Shown in pieces: positions 3,671-12,810 of a stretch of 64,000 nucleotides of DNA. A program made the position numbers and the translations under genes. The DNA lies in assembly GCA_965202625.1 (NCBI GenBank), contig CBDBBI010000010.1, positions 1,856,001-1,920,000 on the forward strand, in the 5' to 3' direction. Numbering within the stretch: the first letter of the stretch is position 1; every line of letters starts with the position of its first letter. The DNA comes from a bacterium (lineage in GTDB: Bacteria; UBA8248). A model generated the notes under the pieces. It worked only from the letters and a program-made list of their open reading frames with translations. It searched no databases and was not told the origin of the DNA.

Positions 3671-5548
3671 CTAATCGCTCGCCGCGGCGCCCCATAGGGC
3701 CTCGGCGACGTCCTCAAGGCCGAGCGCGCGCAAAAGCTCGACTCTGGGACGACCGGTGTCCCTGTCGTAACCTACCGTCTCGTACCAAATGTCGAGCATT
3801 CTCTGCCACTCATCCATGATTGAGACGCCCGCGACCGGCCCATCCACCGGAGTAGAACCGTAGCGCTTGGAGGGCTTCTCGAGCTCGGGGCCGATGCCGC
3901 AGCGCAAGTTGAACGCGCGCATCAAGGCGTTGATGCGGCGGCCGGTCTGTATTGCCTCATCCTTGTCGAGGTCCCATCCGGTGGCCGCCTGAACCGAGCG
4001 GCACAAAATATCCATCGGCGCCCACATGGTGAACACGCACGCCCCCAGAGAATCCTCAAACGCGCGGCGTCCCCTCAGACCGCCTACTTGCTTTGGCACA
4101 GCTTGCGGATCTTGGGGCTCCACGCGCGCGGGCAAGCCATAGTCCGTCGGAAACACCGGAGGGGCGGTATCCAGCGTTCCGCCGGAACCCGTGCAGGTGT
4201 CGATCATCTCCTGCCAGCGGGAGCGGTGGTCGTGCCCTCTCGGGGTATTGCCAATCTCGGTATAAATGGCGCAATTCCGCGCGTCTGCGCCGAGTTTCTC
4301 CGCCGCGCGCTTGGTGCCTTCGGCCAGGAGGTCGCCCATGCCCTCGCGCTTGCAAATCATATCGAGCAGCCTGTTCGCTCCATCAACGTCACCCCATTCC
4401 AGGTGGAAGCCCAGGTCCGCGTCCGTAATATAGCCTTTCTGCTGGCACTCCATCACCCAGCCGCAGAGCCAGCCAAACTCGTTCACATCCACGCAGGCGC
4501 GGTCGAGCTGGGTGTTCATCCAGGAGACCTTCTGGGGGTCGGTGGCACCAATCGTCCAGCCCGCCCCCGACCAACCCTCGTACTCGGGCTCGTCCACCAC
4601 CTGTCCCTTGTAGGGACCAGAGGAGATGACGTGCATGTGGCAATGGTGCATTCCGCATGCGCTGCATTGATGGCCCCGATGATCGAACCCCTCGCGCAGG
4701 CCGTTGGCTTCCCACTGCCCGGTTTCGACTTCCCCTGGCCACACGTTCGTCGTGTAGTTGCGAATCGGAAGCGCGCCCATGCCTTGTAAGTTTCGCACCC
4801 CGCCCAGGGTCCCGTACATGTACAGTCCCTTGGTGGAGGGGTCAGTCTGAAGGCTATGGGCGATGTCGTCTGCCGCCGTGAAGAGCGCTCTGGGATGGGC
4901 GGCGGCGACTCCTTTCTTTCCGCGCTCAATCACCACGGCTTTCACCTTTTTCTTGCCCATGACAGCCCCACAGCCATTCTTGCTGGCCACATGGCCATAA
5001 TCACCCTGTATGGCGGCGAAGCGCACAAGGCTCTCACCAGCGGGCCCAATGCTGTAGACGCTCAGATTGTGGCCGCTCAGCCCCAAGGTTTCCTCGAGTG
5101 CCTGCTGCGTCTCCCAGGTGTCCTTGCCCAACAGCTCGCCGGCATCGCAAAGCGTCACACCCCCATCGTAAACATGGAGGTACGCCCAATCGGGCGATTC
5201 CCCCTGAAATACGATGGCGTCGTAGCCGCAATACTTGAGATTCGCGCCAAAAAAGCCGTTCGCCTGTGTGTTGGTGGCCCCGTTCGTGAGTGCGCCCCGC
5301 GTCACCACGGTAAGCCCGCCAGTTCCCCAAACCGGCAACCCCGCCAGGGGTCCTGTTGCCAAGACGAGCCGGTTTTCGGGATGATCCCAGCCCACCTCGG
5401 ACGGCACCTCATCCCACAGAATCTTGGCACCTAAGCCTGCTCCGCCCACCCACTTTCTGCGGTCGGCCGCTTCAAACCTCTCTCCCCAAGTCTCTCCATT
5501 CGAGAGATCGACACGGAGGATTTCTCCTGCGTATGCGTAATCAGTCAA
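3671..5548 (-). CDS. Aldehyde ferredoxin oxidoreductase family (W/Mo-bis-pterin) catalytic subunit
   Basis: ILRVDLS, IGPAGE..VRFAAI, G.GAVMG.K.VKA, C..C...C and EPEYE motifs. Confidence 0.92.
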   Translation of the reverse strand: MTDYAYAGEILRVDLSNGETWGERFEAADRRKWVGGAGLGAKILWDEVPSEVGWDHPENRLVLATGPLAGLPVWGTGGLTVVTRGALTNGATNTQANGFFGANLKYCGYDAIVFQGESPDWAYLHVYDGGVTLCDAGELLGKDTWETQQALEETLGLSGHNLSVYSIGPAGESLVRFAAIQGDYGHVASKNGCGAVMGKKKVKAVVIERGKKGVAAAHPRALFTAADDIAHSLQTDPSTKGLYMYGTLGGVRNLQGMGALPIRNYTTNVWPGEVETGQWEANGLREGFDHRGHQCSACGMHHCHMHVISSGPYKGQVVDEPEYEGWSGAGWTIGATDPQKVSWMNTQLDRACVDVNEFGWLCGWVMECQQKGYITDADLGFHLEWGDVDGANRLLDMICKREGMGDLLAEGTKRAAEKLGADARNCAIYTEIGNTPRGHDHRSRWQEMIDTCTGSGGTLDTAPPVFPTDYGLPARVEPQDPQAVPKQVGGLRGRRAFEDSLGACVFTMWAPMDILCRSVQAATGWDLDKDEAIQTGRRINALMRAFNLRCGIGPELEKPSKRYGSTPVDGPVAGVSIMDEWQRMLDIWYETVGYDRDTGRPRVELLRALGLEDVAEALWGAAASD

Positions 5549-5566
5549 GGCATCGACCCCCTTTAT

Positions 5567-6889
5567 TTATGAAGAGACGGCGATTTCGCCCGCCGGCGTC
5601 GATGGACGCCCGAGAATGGTTTCCGGCAACAGGCCGCCCGCCGCGCCAGAGGCTAGAAACGCGCGTTTGACGTCAAATGGATTCTTGCGCAGATGCGCCT
5701 TCCACGCAGAGATATCCGCTCCCGTATAGACGAGGCCCTTGAGCATCCCCACATCGTTCGTCGTCCAGATATCTCGAGTTTTTCCTAGAATGATCGCGCC
5801 GGTCATCCTCCCGCCACGGCACAGGAGTTTCCTGTAAGCGGGGCGATCCGCCTGCACGACCTCATAAACCTCGGCGCCTGCGTCGTCCCACTCCCCGAAG
5901 CTGGCTACCTCCAGATCGAGGACGTCCACGATGTTCATGAGTAGGCTGCCCTTGTATGCGGTATCCTCTCCCGCCATGTTCGCCGCCGCCACGCGGCCAT
6001 GCTGCATGGCGGTGGGCTCAATGGCGTGCACGACTCTCTCGCCCGTCACGGCGTCAGGCCCTTGCGCGACGTCCCCCGCCGCGTAGATGTTCTCCACGCT
6101 CGTTCGACAACGATCGTCCACCAGAATTCCCCGCTCGATCTCAAGGCCGGCGCCCGCCACCCAGTCAATGTTGGGCTTGATGCCCGTGGCCATGATAACC
6201 ATGTCGACTTCCAGATTGGGGCCATTCCTGAATGTGATGAGTTTGGCTCCCCCCGCGTCCGCAATGGACACCACCTCGGTAGAGGTGCGCACCTCCACTC
6301 CACGCGTGCTTAGCCAGTTTTCGACGATTCCCGCGCCCGCGGTGTCTATCATGCGCGGCAAGACGTGCGATTCTAGCTCCACCACAGTCAGCCGCACCCC
6401 CTGATTCACGAGGGCGTTTAAAATCGTGAAGGCGATGAAGCCCGCGCCGATCATCGCCACGCGGGCACCCTCGCCCACACCGGACACCACGGCGCGCGCC
6501 TGTGGCAACGTCCAGAAGCTGTGCACGTTCCTCCCGTCCGCACCCGGCACAGGCGCCTTCACAGGGGAGGAACCCGTGGCGATCAAGAGGTTGTCGTATG
6601 CAATCTCATCGCCTCTCTCTAAAATTAACCTGTTGGCGGACACGTCGATTCTCTCGGCGCGCGCGCCGAGCCTCGCCTCTACGTTCAGCGACGCGAGCCT
6701 AGAGGGCGTCGCGATGTAAAGGTGGGACTCTGCAATATCCCGCGCCAAGTAATAGGGCAGCACCATCCGCGAATAAGGCGCCTCGTCCGCTATCAAGACG
6801 ATACGGGAATCGCCCCCGTCCAACTCCCTGAGGGTGGCGATGGCGTTCCAGCCGGCCGTCCCGCCGCCTACGATGACGTGTTTGGCCAT
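5567..6889 (-). CDS. FAD/NAD(P)-dependent pyridine nucleotide-disulfide oxidoreductase (AorC-like)
   Basis: IVGGGTAG, LLIATGS, IGAGFIA and IYAAGDVA; start at MAKHVIVGGG. Confidence 0.88.
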   Translation of the reverse strand: MAKHVIVGGGTAGWNAIATLRELDGGDSRIVLIADEAPYSRMVLPYYLARDIAESHLYIATPSRLASLNVEARLGARAERIDVSANRLILERGDEIAYDNLLIATGSSPVKAPVPGADGRNVHSFWTLPQARAVVSGVGEGARVAMIGAGFIAFTILNALVNQGVRLTVVELESHVLPRMIDTAGAGIVENWLSTRGVEVRTSTEVVSIADAGGAKLITFRNGPNLEVDMVIMATGIKPNIDWVAGAGLEIERGILVDDRCRTSVENIYAAGDVAQGPDAVTGERVVHAIEPTAMQHGRVAAANMAGEDTAYKGSLLMNIVDVLDLEVASFGEWDDAGAEVYEVVQADRPAYRKLLCRGGRMTGAIILGKTRDIWTTNDVGMLKGLVYTGADISAWKAHLRKNPFDVKRAFLASGAAGGLLPETILGRPSTPAGEIAVSS

Positions 6890-6891
6890 GA

Positions 6892-7371
6892 TCAGATCAC
6901 CTCCGCAAGCGGCCCGGCGGGCGATTTCGCCCGCTCTGCGGCGAAGGGTCCCACCCAGTCGGCCAGCGCGGCCTCCTCGTAGAGGATGGCGTGCGTGGGA
7001 CATACAGACACGCATGCGGGATTCCCCCCGCACAAGTCGCACTTGAACGCCTTGTGGGTGTCGATGTTATAGAACATCGTGCCATAGGGACACGCGATAG
7101 TGCAGAGCTTGCAGCCCACGCAAACGTCGTTCGCCACCTCCTTCGCTCCGGCCGGTGAGATGCCGATCGCCTCGACGGGACACGCCGTCAGGCACCACGC
7201 CTCGTCACACTGCGGACACGTGTAGGGTGCGTAGCTCGTGTGGCCCTCGAACGAGGACACACGAATCACCGCTTTGGAGGGCTGAAACGTCCCCGTCTGC
7301 TCGTAGGAACACGCGAGCTCGCACCGCATGCAGCCGGTGCACTTCTCAGGAATGATCTTGAGTATTTTCAT
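6892..7371 (-). CDS. 4Fe-4S dicluster protein (AorA-like electron transfer subunit)
   Basis: CTGCMRCELAC, CPQC...CLTACP, CVGCKLCTIACP and KCDLC...CVSVCP. Confidence 0.92.
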   Translation of the reverse strand: MKILKIIPEKCTGCMRCELACSYEQTGTFQPSKAVIRVSSFEGHTSYAPYTCPQCDEAWCLTACPVEAIGISPAGAKEVANDVCVGCKLCTIACPYGTMFYNIDTHKAFKCDLCGGNPACVSVCPTHAILYEEAALADWVGPFAAERAKSPAGPLAEVI

Positions 7372-7494: not shown

Positions 7495-8440
7495 AATCGC
7501 CAGAGGTCACCAGGGCGGCCCCCGCCACGACGATGAGCGTGGCCGCCACCAGACGCTTCGTGATAACTTCCACATCGCGCAGCAACACCGGCCGACAACA
7601 AGACGATGAAGATCGAGGTCATACGAATCAGGGGACTGATCACGGCAGTTGCCCATCACGCAGCGAGGCCCAGAACAGCACGGCGGCCGAGAGAGCCAGC
7701 AGGCCTGCCGGAACGCACGCCAAGGCGACTCTCAAGATCGGCTGAAACCGTTGCAACTTTGAGGCGAAGCGCGATGAAGCCAGCAGACCCGCATTGGCGA
7801 TCAACATGGCGAGCAGAATGCCCGACCAAGGAGCGTTCATGGCAGCCAGCCCAGCTTTTCGAAGATAGAGCGTGAAGCAAAACGCGACTAAGGAGATGAG
7901 GGCGAACATGTAGTGCATAAGAGAATGCCCGCCCCTTCCCCTCTCGCCGGCGAGCTAGAACAGTCCTATGACGATCAGGGCGATTCCCACCCAGACGCCC
8001 GGAAGTTCGTTCAGAACCATCACGCCCATCACCGCCGCCCCGATGGGAGAGGCCGCCACAAGGCGTTTGTCCTGCTCATCCCGAGGTCCGCGCTCGAACG
8101 CAAGGCACTACAGCACACCATGAAGTTCCCGACCACGCCGGTCAAGGCTTAGAAAACGAGGGCGACACCTCAATCTCCCTCGTAGCTGTCAGAGAAAAGC
8201 GAATAAAAGGCGGCCAGAACCGCCATCCATCCATTGACCCAAAAGGTGATCGTCAACGCCAAGGCGCACTCTAGCAGCTTGCGAATGAGAATTTGATTAT
8301 CCGCGAATAAAAAAGCGCCCATCAGCACGTGAAACTGCCGGCGACGCGTCCACGATGAAATTCACCACCTCAACGCTCCGCCGTCATAGAAAAACAGAGG
8401 GAAGACGACAGAATCATCACCAAAACAAAACGGGCTGACT
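7495..8440 (-). pseudogene. Decayed EamA/DMT transporter
   Basis: Hydrophobic fragments in shifting frames (LTITFWVNGWMAVLA; GMSRTNAL; ISPLIRMTSIFIVLLS; VLLRDVEVITKRLVAATLIVVAGAALVTSGD*) with stops and frameshifts; 5' limit approximate. Confidence 0.7.
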
Positions 8441-8510
8441 GGTTCAAAGAATACTGCTCTTCCTCTCGTTTGGTCGCTGAGTGAAAAAGCCGCGCCCCTC
8501 TTGGGGGGGG

Positions 8511-8604
8511 CTACCCGCCCAAGATGACCGTCAAAGCGCGCGCCACGGCGAGCACCCCGGACGAGCACGCGCAAATTGACACGATCCAGATTCTGATAAA
8601 AAAT
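8511..8604 (-). pseudogene. C-terminal fragment of the EamA gene split by the IS1595 element
   Basis: Reads IFYQNLDRVNLRVLV..GVLAVARALTVILGG*, continuing the EamA N-terminal part across the TSD. Confidence 0.75.
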
Positions 8605-8627
8605 GGGAATTATATACTATAGTGCCC
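8605..8627 (+). repeat. Terminal inverted repeat, cargo end
   Basis: 20/23 match to the reverse complement of 11992-12014; preceded by the TSD. Confidence 0.9.
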
Positions 8628-8683
8628 TGAAATAACCCCTAAGAATTAGTAAATTCAACAAATCTATTTATATTCATTTCTGC

Positions 8684-8713
8684 TTGACAAATCCAATAAG
8701 CATCCCGCATTAT
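8684..8713 (+). promoter_or_regulatory. Putative sigma70 promoter for the cargo operon
   Basis: TTGACA at 8684-8689 and CATTAT 18 bp downstream. Confidence 0.5.
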
Positions 8714-8723
8714 CACTCCCAGA

Positions 8724-8881
8724 TACCATCATAGAGAGCCCGTCTGTAAAGTCGGGTCGCTCGCTGAATACAATAGCCTTCGCACCCGATTCGGGGTAGC
8801 TCCCCGGACCAAGGTAAATAGGTGAGACCTCACTTTCTCTCTGTGATGGTAGCCAAGACCCGGCCTCGTCGAGATGCCGGG
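8724..8881 (+). ncRNA. Candidate structured RNA or leader, family unassigned
   Basis: 15-bp closing stem 8724-8738/8837-8851 (one G-U pair) enclosing short hairpins, then hairpin 8859-8881. Confidence 0.45.
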
Positions 8882-8913
8882 AATAATGGTTATTTATTTC
8901 ACAGGAGAAAGTC

Positions 8914-9414
8914 ATGGCTTACGCGAAAATTGTCTTTGAAAATCCCAAGAATATGCCTCCCAAGAATATGTCTGGAATCAAAAAATATTTGTCTGGCCAA
9001 CACTATACGCGAAAAGCACCGGTTGGTTTTTCGTGGACAACACTCATGTTTTCATGGTTTGTGCCACTTCAGAGGCATAACTTCAAGTGGCTAGCAATCA
9101 TGTTTTTGTGTGGGTTTCCCGTTTCGATTGCAATATCTGCAAATATAACGGAATTTTCCACATATCCCCGATACATTGCATTCTTTATGATTTTTTTCAG
9201 TGTGATTTGCCGTCTTGTATTTCCTTTCATTTACAACAAAATCCATATCCAGGAATTGATCAAAAAGGGGTTTCGGGCAAAATCACTGCATATTTCATCT
9301 GCGTTGTTGTCTCCTAAAATAGATTCTTTGGATTCTCTTTCCACAAAATGGAATATGACAATTCCGCGCCTCGAAACCGAAAATACTGGAGAAGAATTTC
9401 CAGAAAAGGACTAA
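8914..9414 (+). CDS. Membrane protein, DUF2628-like (transposon cargo)
   Basis: KAPVGFSWTT..F..F.PL.R...KW, transmembrane segments, F.YNK..I..L..KGF; AGGAG RBS. Confidence 0.7.
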   Translation: MAYAKIVFENPKNMPPKNMSGIKKYLSGQHYTRKAPVGFSWTTLMFSWFVPLQRHNFKWLAIMFLCGFPVSIAISANITEFSTYPRYIAFFMIFFSVICRLVFPFIYNKIHIQELIKKGFRAKSLHISSALLSPKIDSLDSLSTKWNMTIPRLETENTGEEFPEKD

Positions 9415-9417
9415 AAT

Positions 9418-9855
9418 GTGGAAGATCGCTCCAAGGAATTGATAGCTCTCAAAGCCAAGCTTAGCGACCGGGAATTTCATGTTCTGCAAAGCGAAATTGC
9501 TCGGCGGAAAAAATCCGTAAGTCTCACTTATGTTTTATGGTTTTTTCTTAGTGGTCTTGGCATCCACAAGTTTTACCTGGGCAAGATTTGGCAGGGGGTG
9601 CTTTATATAATTGCGCCAGCCATTGCCATCATATTTTTAGCCACGGGGTTTTTTATGAGTTTTGATCCATATGCAATAACCTCGTCCGAAGAATTGACGG
9701 AGGGCGAATTTATGATTGCGATAGGTTTTATGGGATTGATAGCCTATGGAATCTGTTGGTTCATAGACTTGTTCACCATTCAGAGTCAGGTGAACAGGTG
9801 CAATGAGGACATCGAAATTGAAACTGTTAAATCTCTTCTGGGAGCATCAAGATGA
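9418..9855 (+). CDS. TM2 domain membrane protein (cargo)
   Basis: KKS...Y.LWFFL.GLG.HKFYLGK...G and W.IDLF.I...V...N. Confidence 0.85.
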   Translation: MEDRSKELIALKAKLSDREFHVLQSEIARRKKSVSLTYVLWFFLSGLGIHKFYLGKIWQGVLYIIAPAIAIIFLATGFFMSFDPYAITSSEELTEGEFMIAIGFMGLIAYGICWFIDLFTIQSQVNRCNEDIEIETVKSLLGASR

Positions 9856-10172
9856 AATCTAATCGGAATCCCTCTTCTGCCAACCCCACTTACCATCATA
9901 TTCCGGCCAATATCGTTCACAGGCTGCTCGAATCGCTCGCCGCAGCTCTAGATACGATTTATCATCGTCCTCAAGAACTTTCCATTGAGGATGCAGTTCA
10001 TAACCTTCATCAGGTGATATTTGATGAAGTGGCCGTGGCGGGTCTGAGCGAAAATGAGAAAGCATTGTTTGATCAGTTGAAACAGCATTTTCTTTATCAG
10101 TGGGCAAAGCGTGAGAAGTTGCGTTCATTAAATTCTCCTAAAATAAGAAATAAAATTCAAAACTATTTATAA
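9852..10172 (+). CDS. Hypothetical protein (cargo)
   Basis: 106-aa ORF with ATGA overlap on the TM2 gene. Confidence 0.55.
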   Translation: MKSNRNPSSANPTYHHIPANIVHRLLESLAAALDTIYHRPQELSIEDAVHNLHQVIFDEVAVAGLSENEKALFDQLKQHFLYQWAKREKLRSLNSPKIRNKIQNYL

Positions 10173-10184
10173 AGGAAATCAGAT

Positions 10185-10715
10185 ATGTTTAAGAAAATTA
10201 AATCAATTTCATTGACAGCAATTCTTTTTTGTTTTTTCTGTTTTTCAAATGTTGGCTTGTCATACGGAAAGGAGGTTGATTCTTTTCAGCAAATTATGAA
10301 TTATCTGTTCATTGGTAATGCGCTTGATGATGGTAAAGTAGACAATCTTTATTACGCAAAAATTTTTGATCGTGAGAAATGTATAGCTGGCTGGGAAGAT
10401 TCCGCAGGCGGATTTCTGAAAATATATTGGAACAACATAGACATAGATTCAATTAAATCTCAAGACAAATTCGCTGATGGCGTCTGGATGAAATACATAT
10501 TATTTTCTGGACATCCTGTTGTGGCGGAAGTTGAACTAAAGAATTTCTTTGTTATTATGGGTCTTGCAGCTAAAGGCGTTGCTACAGGAAAATACTCATT
10601 TATATCTATTCCTCTTGGACAACCTGAAACGCGTGATGATGAGCGTATGGCAAAAGCGATTCAGTTGCTGTATTCAAAACATTGCACTGGACTAAAGACA
10701 AAGATGGCATTTTGA
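10185..10715 (+). CDS. Hypothetical exported protein (cargo)
   Basis: Basic N-terminus plus hydrophobic signal-like segment; AAGGA RBS. Confidence 0.65.
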   Translation: MFKKIKSISLTAILFCFFCFSNVGLSYGKEVDSFQQIMNYLFIGNALDDGKVDNLYYAKIFDREKCIAGWEDSAGGFLKIYWNNIDIDSIKSQDKFADGVWMKYILFSGHPVVAEVELKNFFVIMGLAAKGVATGKYSFISIPLGQPETRDDERMAKAIQLLYSKHCTGLKTKMAF

Positions 10716-10775
10716 TTGGGGGATGAAAATAAATGGAAACCCCAGCAGAAACTCCATCAGTAACAAATTGTGGAT

Positions 10776-10952
10776 TTATTTCGGCTTGTCCGTATGACGT
10801 ATCTGCACTGGACGCAATAAACGTTCCACCGCTTCATCCAGGCTCATTTCTTCCAACGTAAATTCTTCTTCTTTTTCGGCCTTGGAAGGCTGATACGTCG
10901 ATTTTGCGATTTCAATCACCGGTAATTTTTGTTGCGTCTTTTTCTTCGGCAT
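10776..10952 (-). CDS. Small 58-aa protein directly downstream of the transposase
   Basis: MPKKKTQQKLPVIEIAKSTYQPSKAEKEEEFTLEEMSLDEAVERLLRPVQIRHTDKPK*; ATG 1 nt after the transposase stop; below the ORF-track cutoff. Confidence 0.55.
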   Translation of the reverse strand: MPKKKTQQKLPVIEIAKSTYQPSKAEKEEEFTLEEMSLDEAVERLLRPVQIRHTDKPK

Positions 10953-10953
10953 T

Positions 10954-11892
10954 TTAGGCTACCAAATCCTTATACTTGAGCCGTTTCCCGTCCATTCCAT
11001 TCACCATTTTCTCCATCTGGTCAATAGTATCAAGAGGCCGAATGTTATGCCTACCGGAAAACTCATCAACATATTTCTGTAAATGCTTATGGCTCATTCG
11101 ATGATAGGTTCCATGAAATCCCTTTTTGAACATGGCCCAGAATGACTCCACGCCGTTGATGTGCGCCTGCTCGTTCACCCACTCTCCAAGGCCATGACTT
11201 ACGGCCTTGTGATTCTTGAGTCCTTTGTATGACTTGTGCTCGTCTGTATATTTAAGGGCGTTTCCATCCACATTCTCATTCACGAAATCATGTAGCGTTT
11301 CCTGCTTGGTGTCATCTACCACCTTGGCTCGAATCCGATTGGTGCTTCTATCCTTGATACCCACCACGGGAGCCTTTCCCACTGCGCCCCGCCCTTTGTT
11401 TTGTTTCTTGTCCTTGCGTTTGTTCTTTTCGAGTCCGCCCACATACGTCTCGTCTATTTCCACGGGGCCGTTGAAAAAATCTCCGTGAGCTTCAAATACC
11501 TTGCGAATCCGATGGGTCAAGTGCCAAGCGGATTTTTGACTGATTCCCAAGTCTCTATGGAGTTTCATACTGGAAACGCCCTTGAGATTGGTGATGCAGA
11601 AATAGAGTGCCAGCGCCCATACCTGAAAACCAAGATTTGAAGATTCCATGATGGTTTTGGTTCGGACGCTGAATCTTTTTCTGCATTCTTTCTCGCGGCA
11701 ACGAAAAGGCATGGTTTTGTGTTTTGCGCCTATGAGCACGTTCAGGGAACCGCAATAGGGACAACACACGCCCACTGGCCACCTCTTCTCGATAAACCAT
11801 TTCTCGGCGGCCTCATCATCAGGAAACATTCGCAAGGCATCCATGATACTCAATCCCTTTCTGAATGCCTTGCCGGGAGCTTTCTTTGCCAT
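10954..11892 (-). CDS. IS1595-family DDE transposase
   Basis: Zn ribbon CPYC..C.EC, HTH, VEIDETYVGG, YTDE..SY, HINGVESFWA and YVDEFSGRHN; start MAKKAPG after GAGGAG. Confidence 0.95.
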   Translation of the reverse strand: MAKKAPGKAFRKGLSIMDALRMFPDDEAAEKWFIEKRWPVGVCCPYCGSLNVLIGAKHKTMPFRCREKECRKRFSVRTKTIMESSNLGFQVWALALYFCITNLKGVSSMKLHRDLGISQKSAWHLTHRIRKVFEAHGDFFNGPVEIDETYVGGLEKNKRKDKKQNKGRGAVGKAPVVGIKDRSTNRIRAKVVDDTKQETLHDFVNENVDGNALKYTDEHKSYKGLKNHKAVSHGLGEWVNEQAHINGVESFWAMFKKGFHGTYHRMSHKHLQKYVDEFSGRHNIRPLDTIDQMEKMVNGMDGKRLKYKDLVA

Positions 11893-11932
11893 TGATTTCT
11901 CCTCATGTTTTCTCTTGTCATTCAATGGCAAA

Positions 11933-11961
11933 ATTATACTAAATAGTGCCCAAATTGTCAA
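11933..11961 (-). promoter_or_regulatory. Transposase promoter, perfect sigma70 consensus
   Basis: Minus strand reads TTGACA-atttgggcactatttag (17 bp)-TATAAT. Confidence 0.85.
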
Positions 11962-11991
11962 GCGTTATATTTTGGGTGTGATTGCATTCAT

Positions 11992-12014
11992 GGGCACTAT
12001 TGTTTATAAGTCCC
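11992..12014 (-). repeat. Terminal inverted repeat, transposase end
   Basis: Pairs with 8605-8627; followed by TSD TAAAAAAT. Confidence 0.9.
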
Positions 12015-12810
12015 TAAAAAATCCAAAAAAAACAAGAGCAAAAACAAAATGGAGAGCCTGTTTATCGGAATCACCTCTACGAGCCTCCCGCGTTGTATGG
12101 CGAGCCAGAAGCTGTATGCCGAGATGATGTTGAAAAATCCTCCGACGAGCATCCACCAGACGCTCTTCTTACTCCATGTTCTGGGGTTGAGTTCATGGTT
12201 TTTGACGAACGGTATCGAGCCAAGTTGAAGGAGCGCGCCCGTGAGTGCTGTGGCGCAGATGCCGAAGGCGGGAGAGGGTATCGTCTGAAACGCGATCTTG
12301 CGAAGCGGCGGTGCGAAGGAGAAGAAAAAGGCCGCCAAAATCGGCATGAAGATAATGCCAGAATGGGGTCGCGCGACACGCCCCTGCGCCTCTCTCCTGA
12401 ACCAGCGGTATCGCCCCAAAGACGACGGCGAAAGTCCCCAGCGCAACGGGGAAGGTGATGGTCTCGCCAAGCAGGAGCACGGCCAGCAGCGCGCTCCACA
12501 TCGGATGGACTTGCAGCATGATTTGAGAGCGCGCCATTCCGATGAGCGCGGCTGATATAAAATTCAGGTTTCTCGATAAAAAATGAGAGCAAAATCCGGC
12601 CATCACGAACCAGAAAATCCCCGCTAGGGGCCATTTTTCGAGACCCGCGCCCGCCATATAAATGGCTGCGGCGTATGTCGTCAGCGTCAGGTTGCTCGCG
12701 AAGGTGAGCGCCTTTGGGCCCATCCATTGAAGAGCGCCGCGATAGACCGTTTGCGCCGCGGCCAGAAAAACGCCGGACAGGAACGACAACAACACGGGAG
12801 GGAGCGATTC
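12015..12810 (-). pseudogene. EamA/DMT transporter, N-terminal part; frameshifted and IS-interrupted
   Basis: Two overlapping ORFs (12193-12885, 11997-12470) each carry one EamA repeat (P.WSALLAVLLLGE; LVEVIPINRLSILF); truncated at the IS end. Confidence 0.8.

Follow-up and report, generated by a model that had tools for sequence, protein, structure and literature searches.

We analysed a stretch of 64,000 nucleotides (nt) of bacterial DNA (the window; contig CBDBBI010000010.1, positions 1,856,001 to 1,920,000 of the forward strand, assembly GCA_965202625.1, GTDB lineage UBA8248). It contains a structured RNA element, here termed the leader, which is one copy of a large family of leader RNAs of ~150-165 nt. 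The leader is placed between a promoter and the first open reading frame (ORF) of a cargo operon (Table 1), and the whole arrangement is carried by a mobile element. A repeat search of the window returned inverted repeats at 8605-8627 and 11992-12014 (23 nt, 87%), flanked on both sides by the direct repeat TAAAAAAT (8597-8604 and 12015-12022). This represents an 8-bp target duplication, and 8 bp is the duplication length of the IS1595 family. GC content is 0.34-0.47 across 8501-12000 compared to ~0.60 in the surrounding DNA, with the leader at the edge of this low-GC island. That is, 8605-12014 is an intact IS1595-family transposon. An initial annotation of the window had proposed a transposon-borne riboregulator or leader ahead of a cargo operon, behind a TTGACA promoter. 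This proposal holds: the element lies inside the transposon, has its own promoter and is followed by a Shine-Dalgarno sequence (SD) and the first cargo ORF. Its first helix, P1, begins a few bases past the predicted transcript start. A Pfam family was assigned to just one of the four cargo ORFs, the second (TM2, 1.4e-11).

Table 1. Features of the leader and of the transposon that carries it (positions within the window).
Feature	Position	Strand	Details
Sigma-70-like promoter of the leader	8684-8713	+	TTGACA (8684-8689), 18-nt spacer, CATTAT (8708-8713); 10/12 matches
Leader core	8721-8880	+	match to covariance model R1, 160.4 bits, E 3e-31 in own genome
P1 5' strand TACCATCATAGAGAG, proposed anti-anti-SD	8724-8738	+	pairs with 8837-8851
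P2 hairpin	8739-8756	+	CCCG (8739-8742), loop, CGGG (8753-8756); 3' arm overlaps H1a
H1a GUCGGGUCG	8751-8759	+	conserved strand with two alternative partners (P2 5' arm; H1b)
Hairpin A	8760-8826	+	P3, conserved internal loop, P3a, P4
P3	8760-8765 with 8821-8826	+	GGTGAG pairs with CTCGCT
Internal loop of hairpin A	8766-8775 opposite 8816-8820	+	GAAUACAAUA opposite AAAUA; invariant columns
P3a	8776-8780 with 8811-8815	+	pair counts
P4	8790-8796 with 8802-8808	+	includes CGGGG-TAGCT-CCCCG (8792-8806)
J3/1 and P1 3' strand, proposed anti-SD	8827-8851	+	complementary to 8886-8918
H1b GACCCGGC and P5 hairpin	8857-8881	+	H1b 8857-8864; P5 8859-8864 with 8876-8881; alternative pairing with H1a
SD and start codon of the first cargo ORF	8903-8916	+	AGGAGA 8903-8908, start codon 8914-8916; sequence
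Four cargo ORFs	8914-9414, 9418-9855, 9852-10172, 10185-10715	+	ORF calls
58-aa ORF after the transposase gene	10776-10952	-	ORF list, translation
Transposase	10954-11961	-	DDE_Tnp_IS1595 (PF12762) 1e-38; N-terminal Zn_ribbon_IS1595 (PF12760) 2.8e-6
IS1595-family transposon (leader, four cargo ORFs, small ORF, transposase)	8605-12014		inverted repeats, target duplication, low GC

The structure of the leader is supported by covariation among its relatives. The covariance model R1 was built from 13 well-aligned sequences with 30 invariant columns, and pairs were counted in an R1 alignment of 81 rows, 78 of them distinct. Across the 42 pairs, 91.7% of the cells were paired, versus 67.0% after shuffling (none of 500 shuffles reached the observed value) and 37-45% when the partners were slid. 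Homologues show compensatory changes: 33 of the 42 pairs change on both sides. The long stem P1, already recognised in the initial annotation, joins TACCATCATAGAGAG (8724-8738) and CTCTCTGTGATGGTA (8837-8851), which are 93% complementary over 15 nt with a U-G on the + strand as the sole exception. It is conserved in the family, and all 15 pairs show compensatory changes, with four to six pair types each among the 78 distinct sequences. In P3 (helix 4), where the family pairs GGYGRG with CYCGCU, 97.9% of the cells are paired. P3 and P3a enclose a near-invariant internal loop, GAAUACAAYA opposite GAAUAG. Four of the five helices proposed earlier are conserved, namely the long stem and those at 8739-8756, 8792-8806 and 8859-8881. 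The fifth, GTGAG-AC-CTCAC (8822-8833), is present in the letters but not conserved, and it conflicts with P3; we rejected it because the family pairs positions 8821-8826 with 8760-8765.

A further helix, H1, was absent from the model with which the alignment was built, yet it is 92-94% paired in the 78 distinct rows. It pairs GUCGGGUCG (8751-8759) with a CGGCCCGGC-like sequence just 3' of P1 (8856-8864) and crosses P1. In an anchored count of 72 distinct sequences, eight of its nine pairs were at least 93% pairable (0 of 5000 permutations reached the observed value), with compensatory changes from G-C to A-U or U-A. Family-wide, 395 cells hold G-U or U-G compared to 72 with A-C or C-A. This excess indicates that the folded molecule is the + strand RNA, in line with the RNA-level structure first suspected from the single G-U pair. 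The + strand of 8700-8915 (216 nt) folds better than shuffled sequences, at -75.1 kcal/mol (z = -3.29, with one of 200 dinucleotide shuffles as good), and the - strand of the same stretch gave z = -1.80. The element is a real, strongly supported structured RNA.

When the 816 nt at 8605-9420 were used as BLAST query against 60 relatives, they matched only at query positions 103-280 (window 8707-8884). In these 60 relatives, the transposon end and ORF1 gave no BLAST match, and some of the genomes held several leader copies. With R1, we obtained 125 matches (E <= 0.001) in 21 of the 23 genomes of the genus, with 1-15 copies each and six in the genome of the window itself. Across the phylum, 24 of 51 genomes had matches, yet these belong to only 4 of 15 genera. 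A pattern derived from the invariant positions matched at least 94 stretches (one genome per species scanned), and R1 matched 79 of the 80 pattern loci that were fetched (23-109 bits). The remaining one (L086, Luteibacter) was rejected as a chance match, being coding-looking sequence without an Rfam match. Among the matches listed, the titles of metagenome-assembled genomes (MAGs) name Alpha-, Gamma- and 'Delta'-proteobacteria, Acidobacteriota and Nitrospinota as well as Longimicrobiales, Rhodothermales, Limisphaerales, Acidimicrobiia and Dehalococcoidia; by these labels, the family occurs in at least about nine phylum-level groups. The same pattern gave 0 matches among the IMG/VR viral contigs. 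In most of the related loci inspected, a TTGAC-type -35 box is found at a fixed upstream distance. Record titles often resemble those of host-associated marine MAGs, and one of the family names appears in a paper on sponge microbiomes; no claim about habitat is made here. In locus L098 (a Rhodospirillales MAG), the family RNA is preceded at ~40 nt by a tRNA gene (838-922, - strand, 55.8 bits) and, further upstream, by a fragment of an IS1595 transposase, which may represent an insertion beside a tRNA.

Is this family already catalogued? At gathering thresholds, Rfam 15 returned 0 families for the whole window, in agreement with the initial annotation, which could match the element to no known family. 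Below these thresholds, one relevant match appeared: sRNA-Xcc1 (RF02221), which scored 15.4 bits at 8750-8873 in a scan of 8500-9000 with E up to 10. Rows for SNORD111, DapZ and DUF3800-XI from the same scan were dismissed as noise. Among 20 related loci, RF02221 matched three at E < 1, end to end and with 29.6-31.8 bits (its gathering score is 53). On the genome of the window, it found none of the six leader copies and three weak matches elsewhere; on three other genomes, it found nothing. The reverse comparison used 19 true or near-threshold sRNA-Xcc1 matches from one order (7 of 81 genomes). A second covariance model, R2, built from our own family only and with H1 as closing helix, detected 18 of these 19 loci at E < 1 and 15 at E < 0.01 (16.7-40.4 bits), whereas R1, with its P1 topology, detected three at E < 0.05; all these E-values are rough owing to a short calibration. 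Judged by these matches, the leader core is probably a distant, extended relative of sRNA-Xcc1. The absence of a known family consequently applies at Rfam thresholds only. In the literature searched, we found no description of the extended leader family and nothing relevant on a sponge or metagenome RNA motif of such kind, although papers beyond it may exist. What is new is probably an extended variant, below Rfam thresholds, of the catalogued and poorly understood sRNA-Xcc1 family.

We then looked at the genes behind the leader, applying a simple SD-plus-ORF call downstream of it in 62 loci. An SD-preceded ORF was called in 53 of them, and in 37 of these 53 it starts no more than 50 nt from the model end. 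In 40 of the 53 ORFs, the N-terminal 12-mer is strongly hydrophobic (signal peptide, membrane anchor or lipobox), versus 386 of 2767 control ORFs from the genome of the window, and some of the 13 ORFs without such a 12-mer are mis-called starts. Of the 42 ORFs scanned, 32 had no Pfam family; SNase, glycosyltransferase 25, PEGA, an outer-membrane beta-barrel, DUF732 and rhodanese are among the families of the others. The genome of the window has five further copies, of which four precede paralogous secreted proteins and one a small membrane protein. The downstream genes mostly encode exported proteins without known family.

Two further observations concern these genes. Lipoproteins with a glycine run after the lipobox cysteine are common downstream of the leader (L005, L011/L062, L063, L084, L096, L109, L115, L118). 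The L005 and L011 proteins (~290-300 amino acids (aa); partial ORFs without Pfam match) end in a GRFYGPNHEEVGGVF-like motif, of a kind known from transferrin-binding-type surface lipoproteins. The own-genome copies L164, L165, L166 and L046 are divergent, with changes in the internal loop (such as CCAAAUGCAAGA opposite GGAAACAGG). All four precede paralogous secreted proteins of ~215-226 aa and could form a sub-class with different specificity.

The cargo can be exchanged while the leader is kept. Contigs from four public sequencing runs were compared with window 7900-12700, and two DNA contigs (1471 nt and, from a different sample, 9959 nt) retain 7900-8916 and 10769-12700. In both, window 8917-10768 with all four cargo ORFs is swapped for 1357 other letters. 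They therefore contain the same transposon at the same site with a different cargo behind the preserved leader and start codon, which points to modular cargo exchange within one transposon at one site. In a 52-nt DNA contig, position 8604 is joined to 12026 via CC, which corresponds to an empty target site, weakly evidenced as one side comprises just 20 nt; on this slender basis, the insertion appears to be polymorphic in the sampled population. A short Lys/Glu-rich ORF after the transposase gene is also seen in the related element L021 of another genome (~1300-1440; similar by eye) and could represent an accessory gene conserved among such IS1595 elements. Upstream of the low-GC island, an operon for aldehyde ferredoxin oxidoreductase, pyridine-nucleotide-disulphide oxidoreductase and 4Fe-4S ferredoxin (3671-7371, - strand) is apparently unrelated to the leader.

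Is the link to IS1595 elements a peculiarity of the window? Within the genus, 18 of the 125 RNA copies lie no more than 4 kb from a DDE_Tnp_IS1595 domain, and 18 of 58 domain matches have an RNA nearby, where fewer than one such neighbour would be expected (a rough estimate based on ~2.5 domains per 3.9-Mb genome). All 18 cases follow one of two arrangements. In ten, including the window, the RNA reads toward the 3' end of a convergent transposase gene with the cargo in between; in the other eight, it lies directly downstream of a same-strand transposase gene. The genome of the window holds a second unit of leader, cargo and transposase (C10:494642-497312, L046; RNA on the + strand), which encodes a 226-aa secreted protein followed by a convergent IS1595-type transposase, 38% identical to that of the window. 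Beyond the genus, eight of the 13 RNA copies of an alphaproteobacterial MAG lie within 3.2 kb of an IS1595 domain, as do two of three in a Pseudohongiella MAG, while in a Pseudomonadales MAG with a single RNA copy, no IS1595 domain is present. A tblastn search with the window transposase in the 700-nt flanks of 80 scan loci detected fragments in eight, including Acidobacteriota, Rhodospirillales and Gammaproteobacteria. From this recurrent neighbourhood across phyla, we conclude that the leader tracks this transposon family together with an exchangeable cargo slot. At the same time, 107 of the 125 genus copies have no IS1595 domain within 4 kb, and the family is not confined to transposons. 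Inverted repeats like those of the window were not found at related IS copies by a fixed-pattern search, and a repeat search in L021 and L044 gave nothing usable; by eye, one end of L021 resembles the left repeat of the window.

These data also bear on a role of the element as DNA, either as a recombination or recognition site for cargo exchange or as a structure used by the IS1595 transposase. The 18 copies close to an IS1595 domain, the restriction to two arrangements that both place the RNA at the 3' side of the transposase gene, and the swap of cargo exactly from the start codon on would all suit such a role. But the preponderance of G-U over A-C cells (395 versus 72) means that the pairing works on one strand only, as RNA. 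In addition, the element has a promoter and a fixed orientation toward the ORF, 107 of the 125 genus copies lack a nearby IS1595 domain, and none of the 19 true sRNA-Xcc1 loci (3 kb each) contains an IS1595 transposase by tblastn. We therefore regard a DNA-level function as very improbable.

Several strands of the leader have two possible partners. For P2, the pairing of H1a with an upstream RRCCC was stronger for cognate strands (mean -10.4 kcal/mol) than for non-cognate combinations (-8.5 kcal/mol; reached in 0 of 5000 permutations). H1b can pair with the tail that follows it to give P5, as seen in 68 of 72 local minimum free energy folds. The third strand is the 3' side of P1. In the window, 8827-8851 can form a duplex with 8886-8918 of -27.5 kcal/mol that covers both AGGAGA and the AUG. 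Across 72 sequences of the family, the mean for the cognate anti-SD pairing was -21.0 versus -18.2 kcal/mol for the non-cognate one (0 of 5000 permutations reached this), and the anti-SD partner generally ends at the start codon. The two states are close in energy at the window locus, with -77.3 kcal/mol for the fold with the anti-SD helix and -73.6 with P1 forced. A search for terminator-like sites found no intrinsic terminator on the + strand within 8300-9300, which favours control of translation, and in the related loci inspected P5 is generally not followed by a U run. Taken together, the element has a covarying structure in the 5' untranslated region (5' UTR), on the same strand as the gene, as expected for a cis-regulatory leader. 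It also has, by computational evidence, an expression platform in which pairings that involve the SD exclude one another.

Based on these pairings, we propose that the leader is a bistable switch of translation that acts in cis. In its ON state, P1 would form together with the local hairpins P2 and P5, leaving the SD free. In the OFF fold, H1a (GUCGGGUCG) would quit P2 and pair with H1b (GACCCGGC), which in turn would quit P5; the resulting H1 is a closing helix of the sRNA-Xcc1 type. P1 would be opened, so that its 3' strand pairs with the region of the SD and AUG. Together, H1 and the anti-SD helix would then be arranged like a classical H-type pseudoknot, the segments following one another as H1a, hairpin A, P1 3' strand, a linker of 2-5 nt, H1b, a loop of 20-40 nt and the SD. 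Formation of H1 together with P1 would, on geometric grounds, require long connectors across both helices. Hairpin A would be common to both folds, and its near-invariant loop is the likely sensor, be it for a protein or a small molecule. The data show the RNA family with its helices and alternative pairings, its placement ahead of ORFs, the transposon surroundings and the bias toward exported proteins; switch direction, pseudoknot geometry and the existence of a trigger are what we infer. Overall, we think it somewhat more probable than otherwise that the element is the promoter-proximal 5' leader of a transposon cargo operon, a cis-acting bistable translational switch and a distant, extended relative of sRNA-Xcc1.

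A simpler module might serve the same genes. The leader could be a constitutive expression module without any sensor, whose 5'-terminal stem gives a stable mRNA and a fixed translation level to horizontally moved genes, with which promoter and leader would travel together. The start of P1 a few bases past the predicted transcript start is what such a stabiliser would show. The downstream genes are heterogeneous and accessory (32 of 42 without Pfam family), and the module moves on IS1595 elements with exchangeable cargo behind it. However, a stabiliser would need neither a near-invariant internal loop that is kept from the leader family to sRNA-Xcc1, nor three strands that each have two covarying partners. 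A constitutive module is therefore unlikely in our view.

A trans-acting small RNA (sRNA) is another candidate. Here, the RNA would come from its own promoter or be processed from the leader and pair with other mRNAs, the proximity to an ORF being incidental or part of a dual function. The nearest catalogued relative, sRNA-Xcc1, is described as accumulating as an RNA of ~88-100 nt on Northern blots (PMC2996969), its Xylella homologues are handled as Hfq-type sRNAs (PMC12189769), and the Bartonella Brt leaders are proposed to act both in trans and in cis (PMC5387305). On the other hand, our element always precedes an SD and ORF at close range and on the same strand. The anti-SD strand matches the SD of its own locus better than the SDs of other loci, and it is enclosed in a 15-bp stem instead of being exposed. 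The + strand has no intrinsic terminator after the element (8300-9300), and a 157-nt contig from an RNA library, identical to 8805-8960, spans the 3' half of the leader, the SD and the start of ORF1, that is, it continues from the leader into the gene. We consider a free-standing small RNA less likely than a cis-acting leader, and the trans-acting role as such quite unlikely. An antitoxin-like RNA, also suggested at the outset, gained no support in the analysis.

Several points weigh against the cis-acting switch. The title of Chen 2011 reportedly names sRNA-Xcc1 as trans-acting, and a stable species of ~88 nt is described for it on Northern blots (PMC2996969). The RNA-library contig is the sole RNA evidence; strand, start and end are not readable from it, and carry-over of DNA is possible. 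Its run covers 8805-8960 only, and missing cover elsewhere carries no information. Nearest-neighbour folding of the window fails to give P3 and P3a. As the alignment was fitted to P1, P3, P3a and P4, the counts for these four helices are favoured, and the sequences are related, so that shuffle controls overstate significance. The anti-SD signal is modest, with the cognate partner ranking first in its row for only five of 72 sequences and within the top five for 16. Mutual exclusion of P1 and H1 is argued from geometry alone, and the two might form side by side as a pseudoknot. With respect to the downstream genes, 16 of the 53 ORFs begin more than 50 nt downstream, and nine of the 62 loci have no ORF call. 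Finally, the family has no known ligand or protein partner. It also differs from SD-sequestering riboswitches in genes that share export but no metabolic theme, and in being carried by transposons.

If the proposed cis-acting switch is correct, one portable RNA module would govern hundreds of unrelated, mainly exported accessory proteins and would have been spread by transposons among very distant bacteria. sRNA-Xcc1 would be recast as the short form of a far larger class of cis-acting leaders. The family would constitute a well-populated orphan riboswitch candidate with a near-invariant internal loop and a strand-exchange design, and the window an example of a transposon that bears a promoter and a switch for exchangeable cargo. 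A more speculative extension, which we put forward as doubtful, is that the family is a true signal-sensing riboswitch class and belongs to the standard kit of cargo-carrying IS1595 transposons. Inserted genes for secreted or surface proteins would then be expressed conditionally in any recipient. A habitat signal common to these marine, apparently host-associated bacteria, sensed by the invariant loop, would account for the spread over about nine phylum-level groups.

sRNA-Xcc1 is catalogued as an 88-nt RNA of Xanthomonas campestris and is described from integron cassettes, genomic islands and phages as well. It is reported to precede symE in the integron cassette that is most widespread in Xanthomonas (10.1101/2025.06.18.660453) and to lie upstream of an ORF in APSE phages (10.1101/2020.03.17.996009), and seven homologues are annotated in Xylella, where they are treated as Hfq-type sRNAs (PMC12189769). 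It shares with the leader family the closing helix GUCGGG.../...CCCGRC, a hairpin whose internal loop is (G/C)U(G/A)AAUACAAnA opposite GAAUA, and a tail resembling CACC. In both, an upstream hairpin competes for the 5' strand of the closing helix and covaries with it (CCGAC/GUCGG to CCGGC/GCCGG), and both have a further hairpin after the core and precede an SD and ORF on mobile DNA. The differences lie in the parts that surround this core. The second local hairpin of sRNA-Xcc1 is replaced in the leader by a single strand (8827-8851) that pairs with a 5' extension to give the 15-bp P1 crossing H1, and many members of the leader family add the P4 extension. The 3' strand of H1 reads GGCCCGGC in the leader and not the SD-complementary CCUCCCGAC. 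While the leader family mostly precedes exported proteins, sRNA-Xcc1 loci precede small proteins without a hydrophobic N-terminus (by eye), and 15 of 16 of their ORFs have no Pfam family, the other one being SymE. The IS1595 link of the leader family was seen at none of the 19 sRNA-Xcc1 loci.

The Brt1-9 RNAs of Bartonella are described as multi-copy, structured leaders of ~200 nt immediately upstream of genes, with a proposed double function as sRNA and cis-acting riboswitch, and as genus-specific and located before helix-turn-helix regulators (PMC5387305). Compared by description only, they resemble the leader family in being multi-copy, highly structured and gene-proximal. The c4 antisense RNA of phages P1 and P7 contains strands that can pair with the ribosome-binding region located downstream on its transcript. 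Our leader is likewise an upstream structured RNA with complementarity to the ribosome-binding region of its own transcript and a putative regulator on a mobile element. C4 is co-annotated with sRNA-Xcc1 matches in Xylella (PMC12189769). The C4 model (RF01695) had no match with E up to 10 in 8500-9000, nor with E up to 1 in the 20 related loci, and the complementary strand lies inside a long stem in the leader, whereas it is found in exposed loops in C4. SD-sequestering riboswitches combine a structured 5' UTR domain with a P1-type stem whose 3' strand is able to mask the ribosome-binding site, and they occur in multiple copies per genome. The same combination is found in the leader family: a conserved 5' UTR domain, possible pairing of the P1 3' strand with the SD, and several copies per genome.

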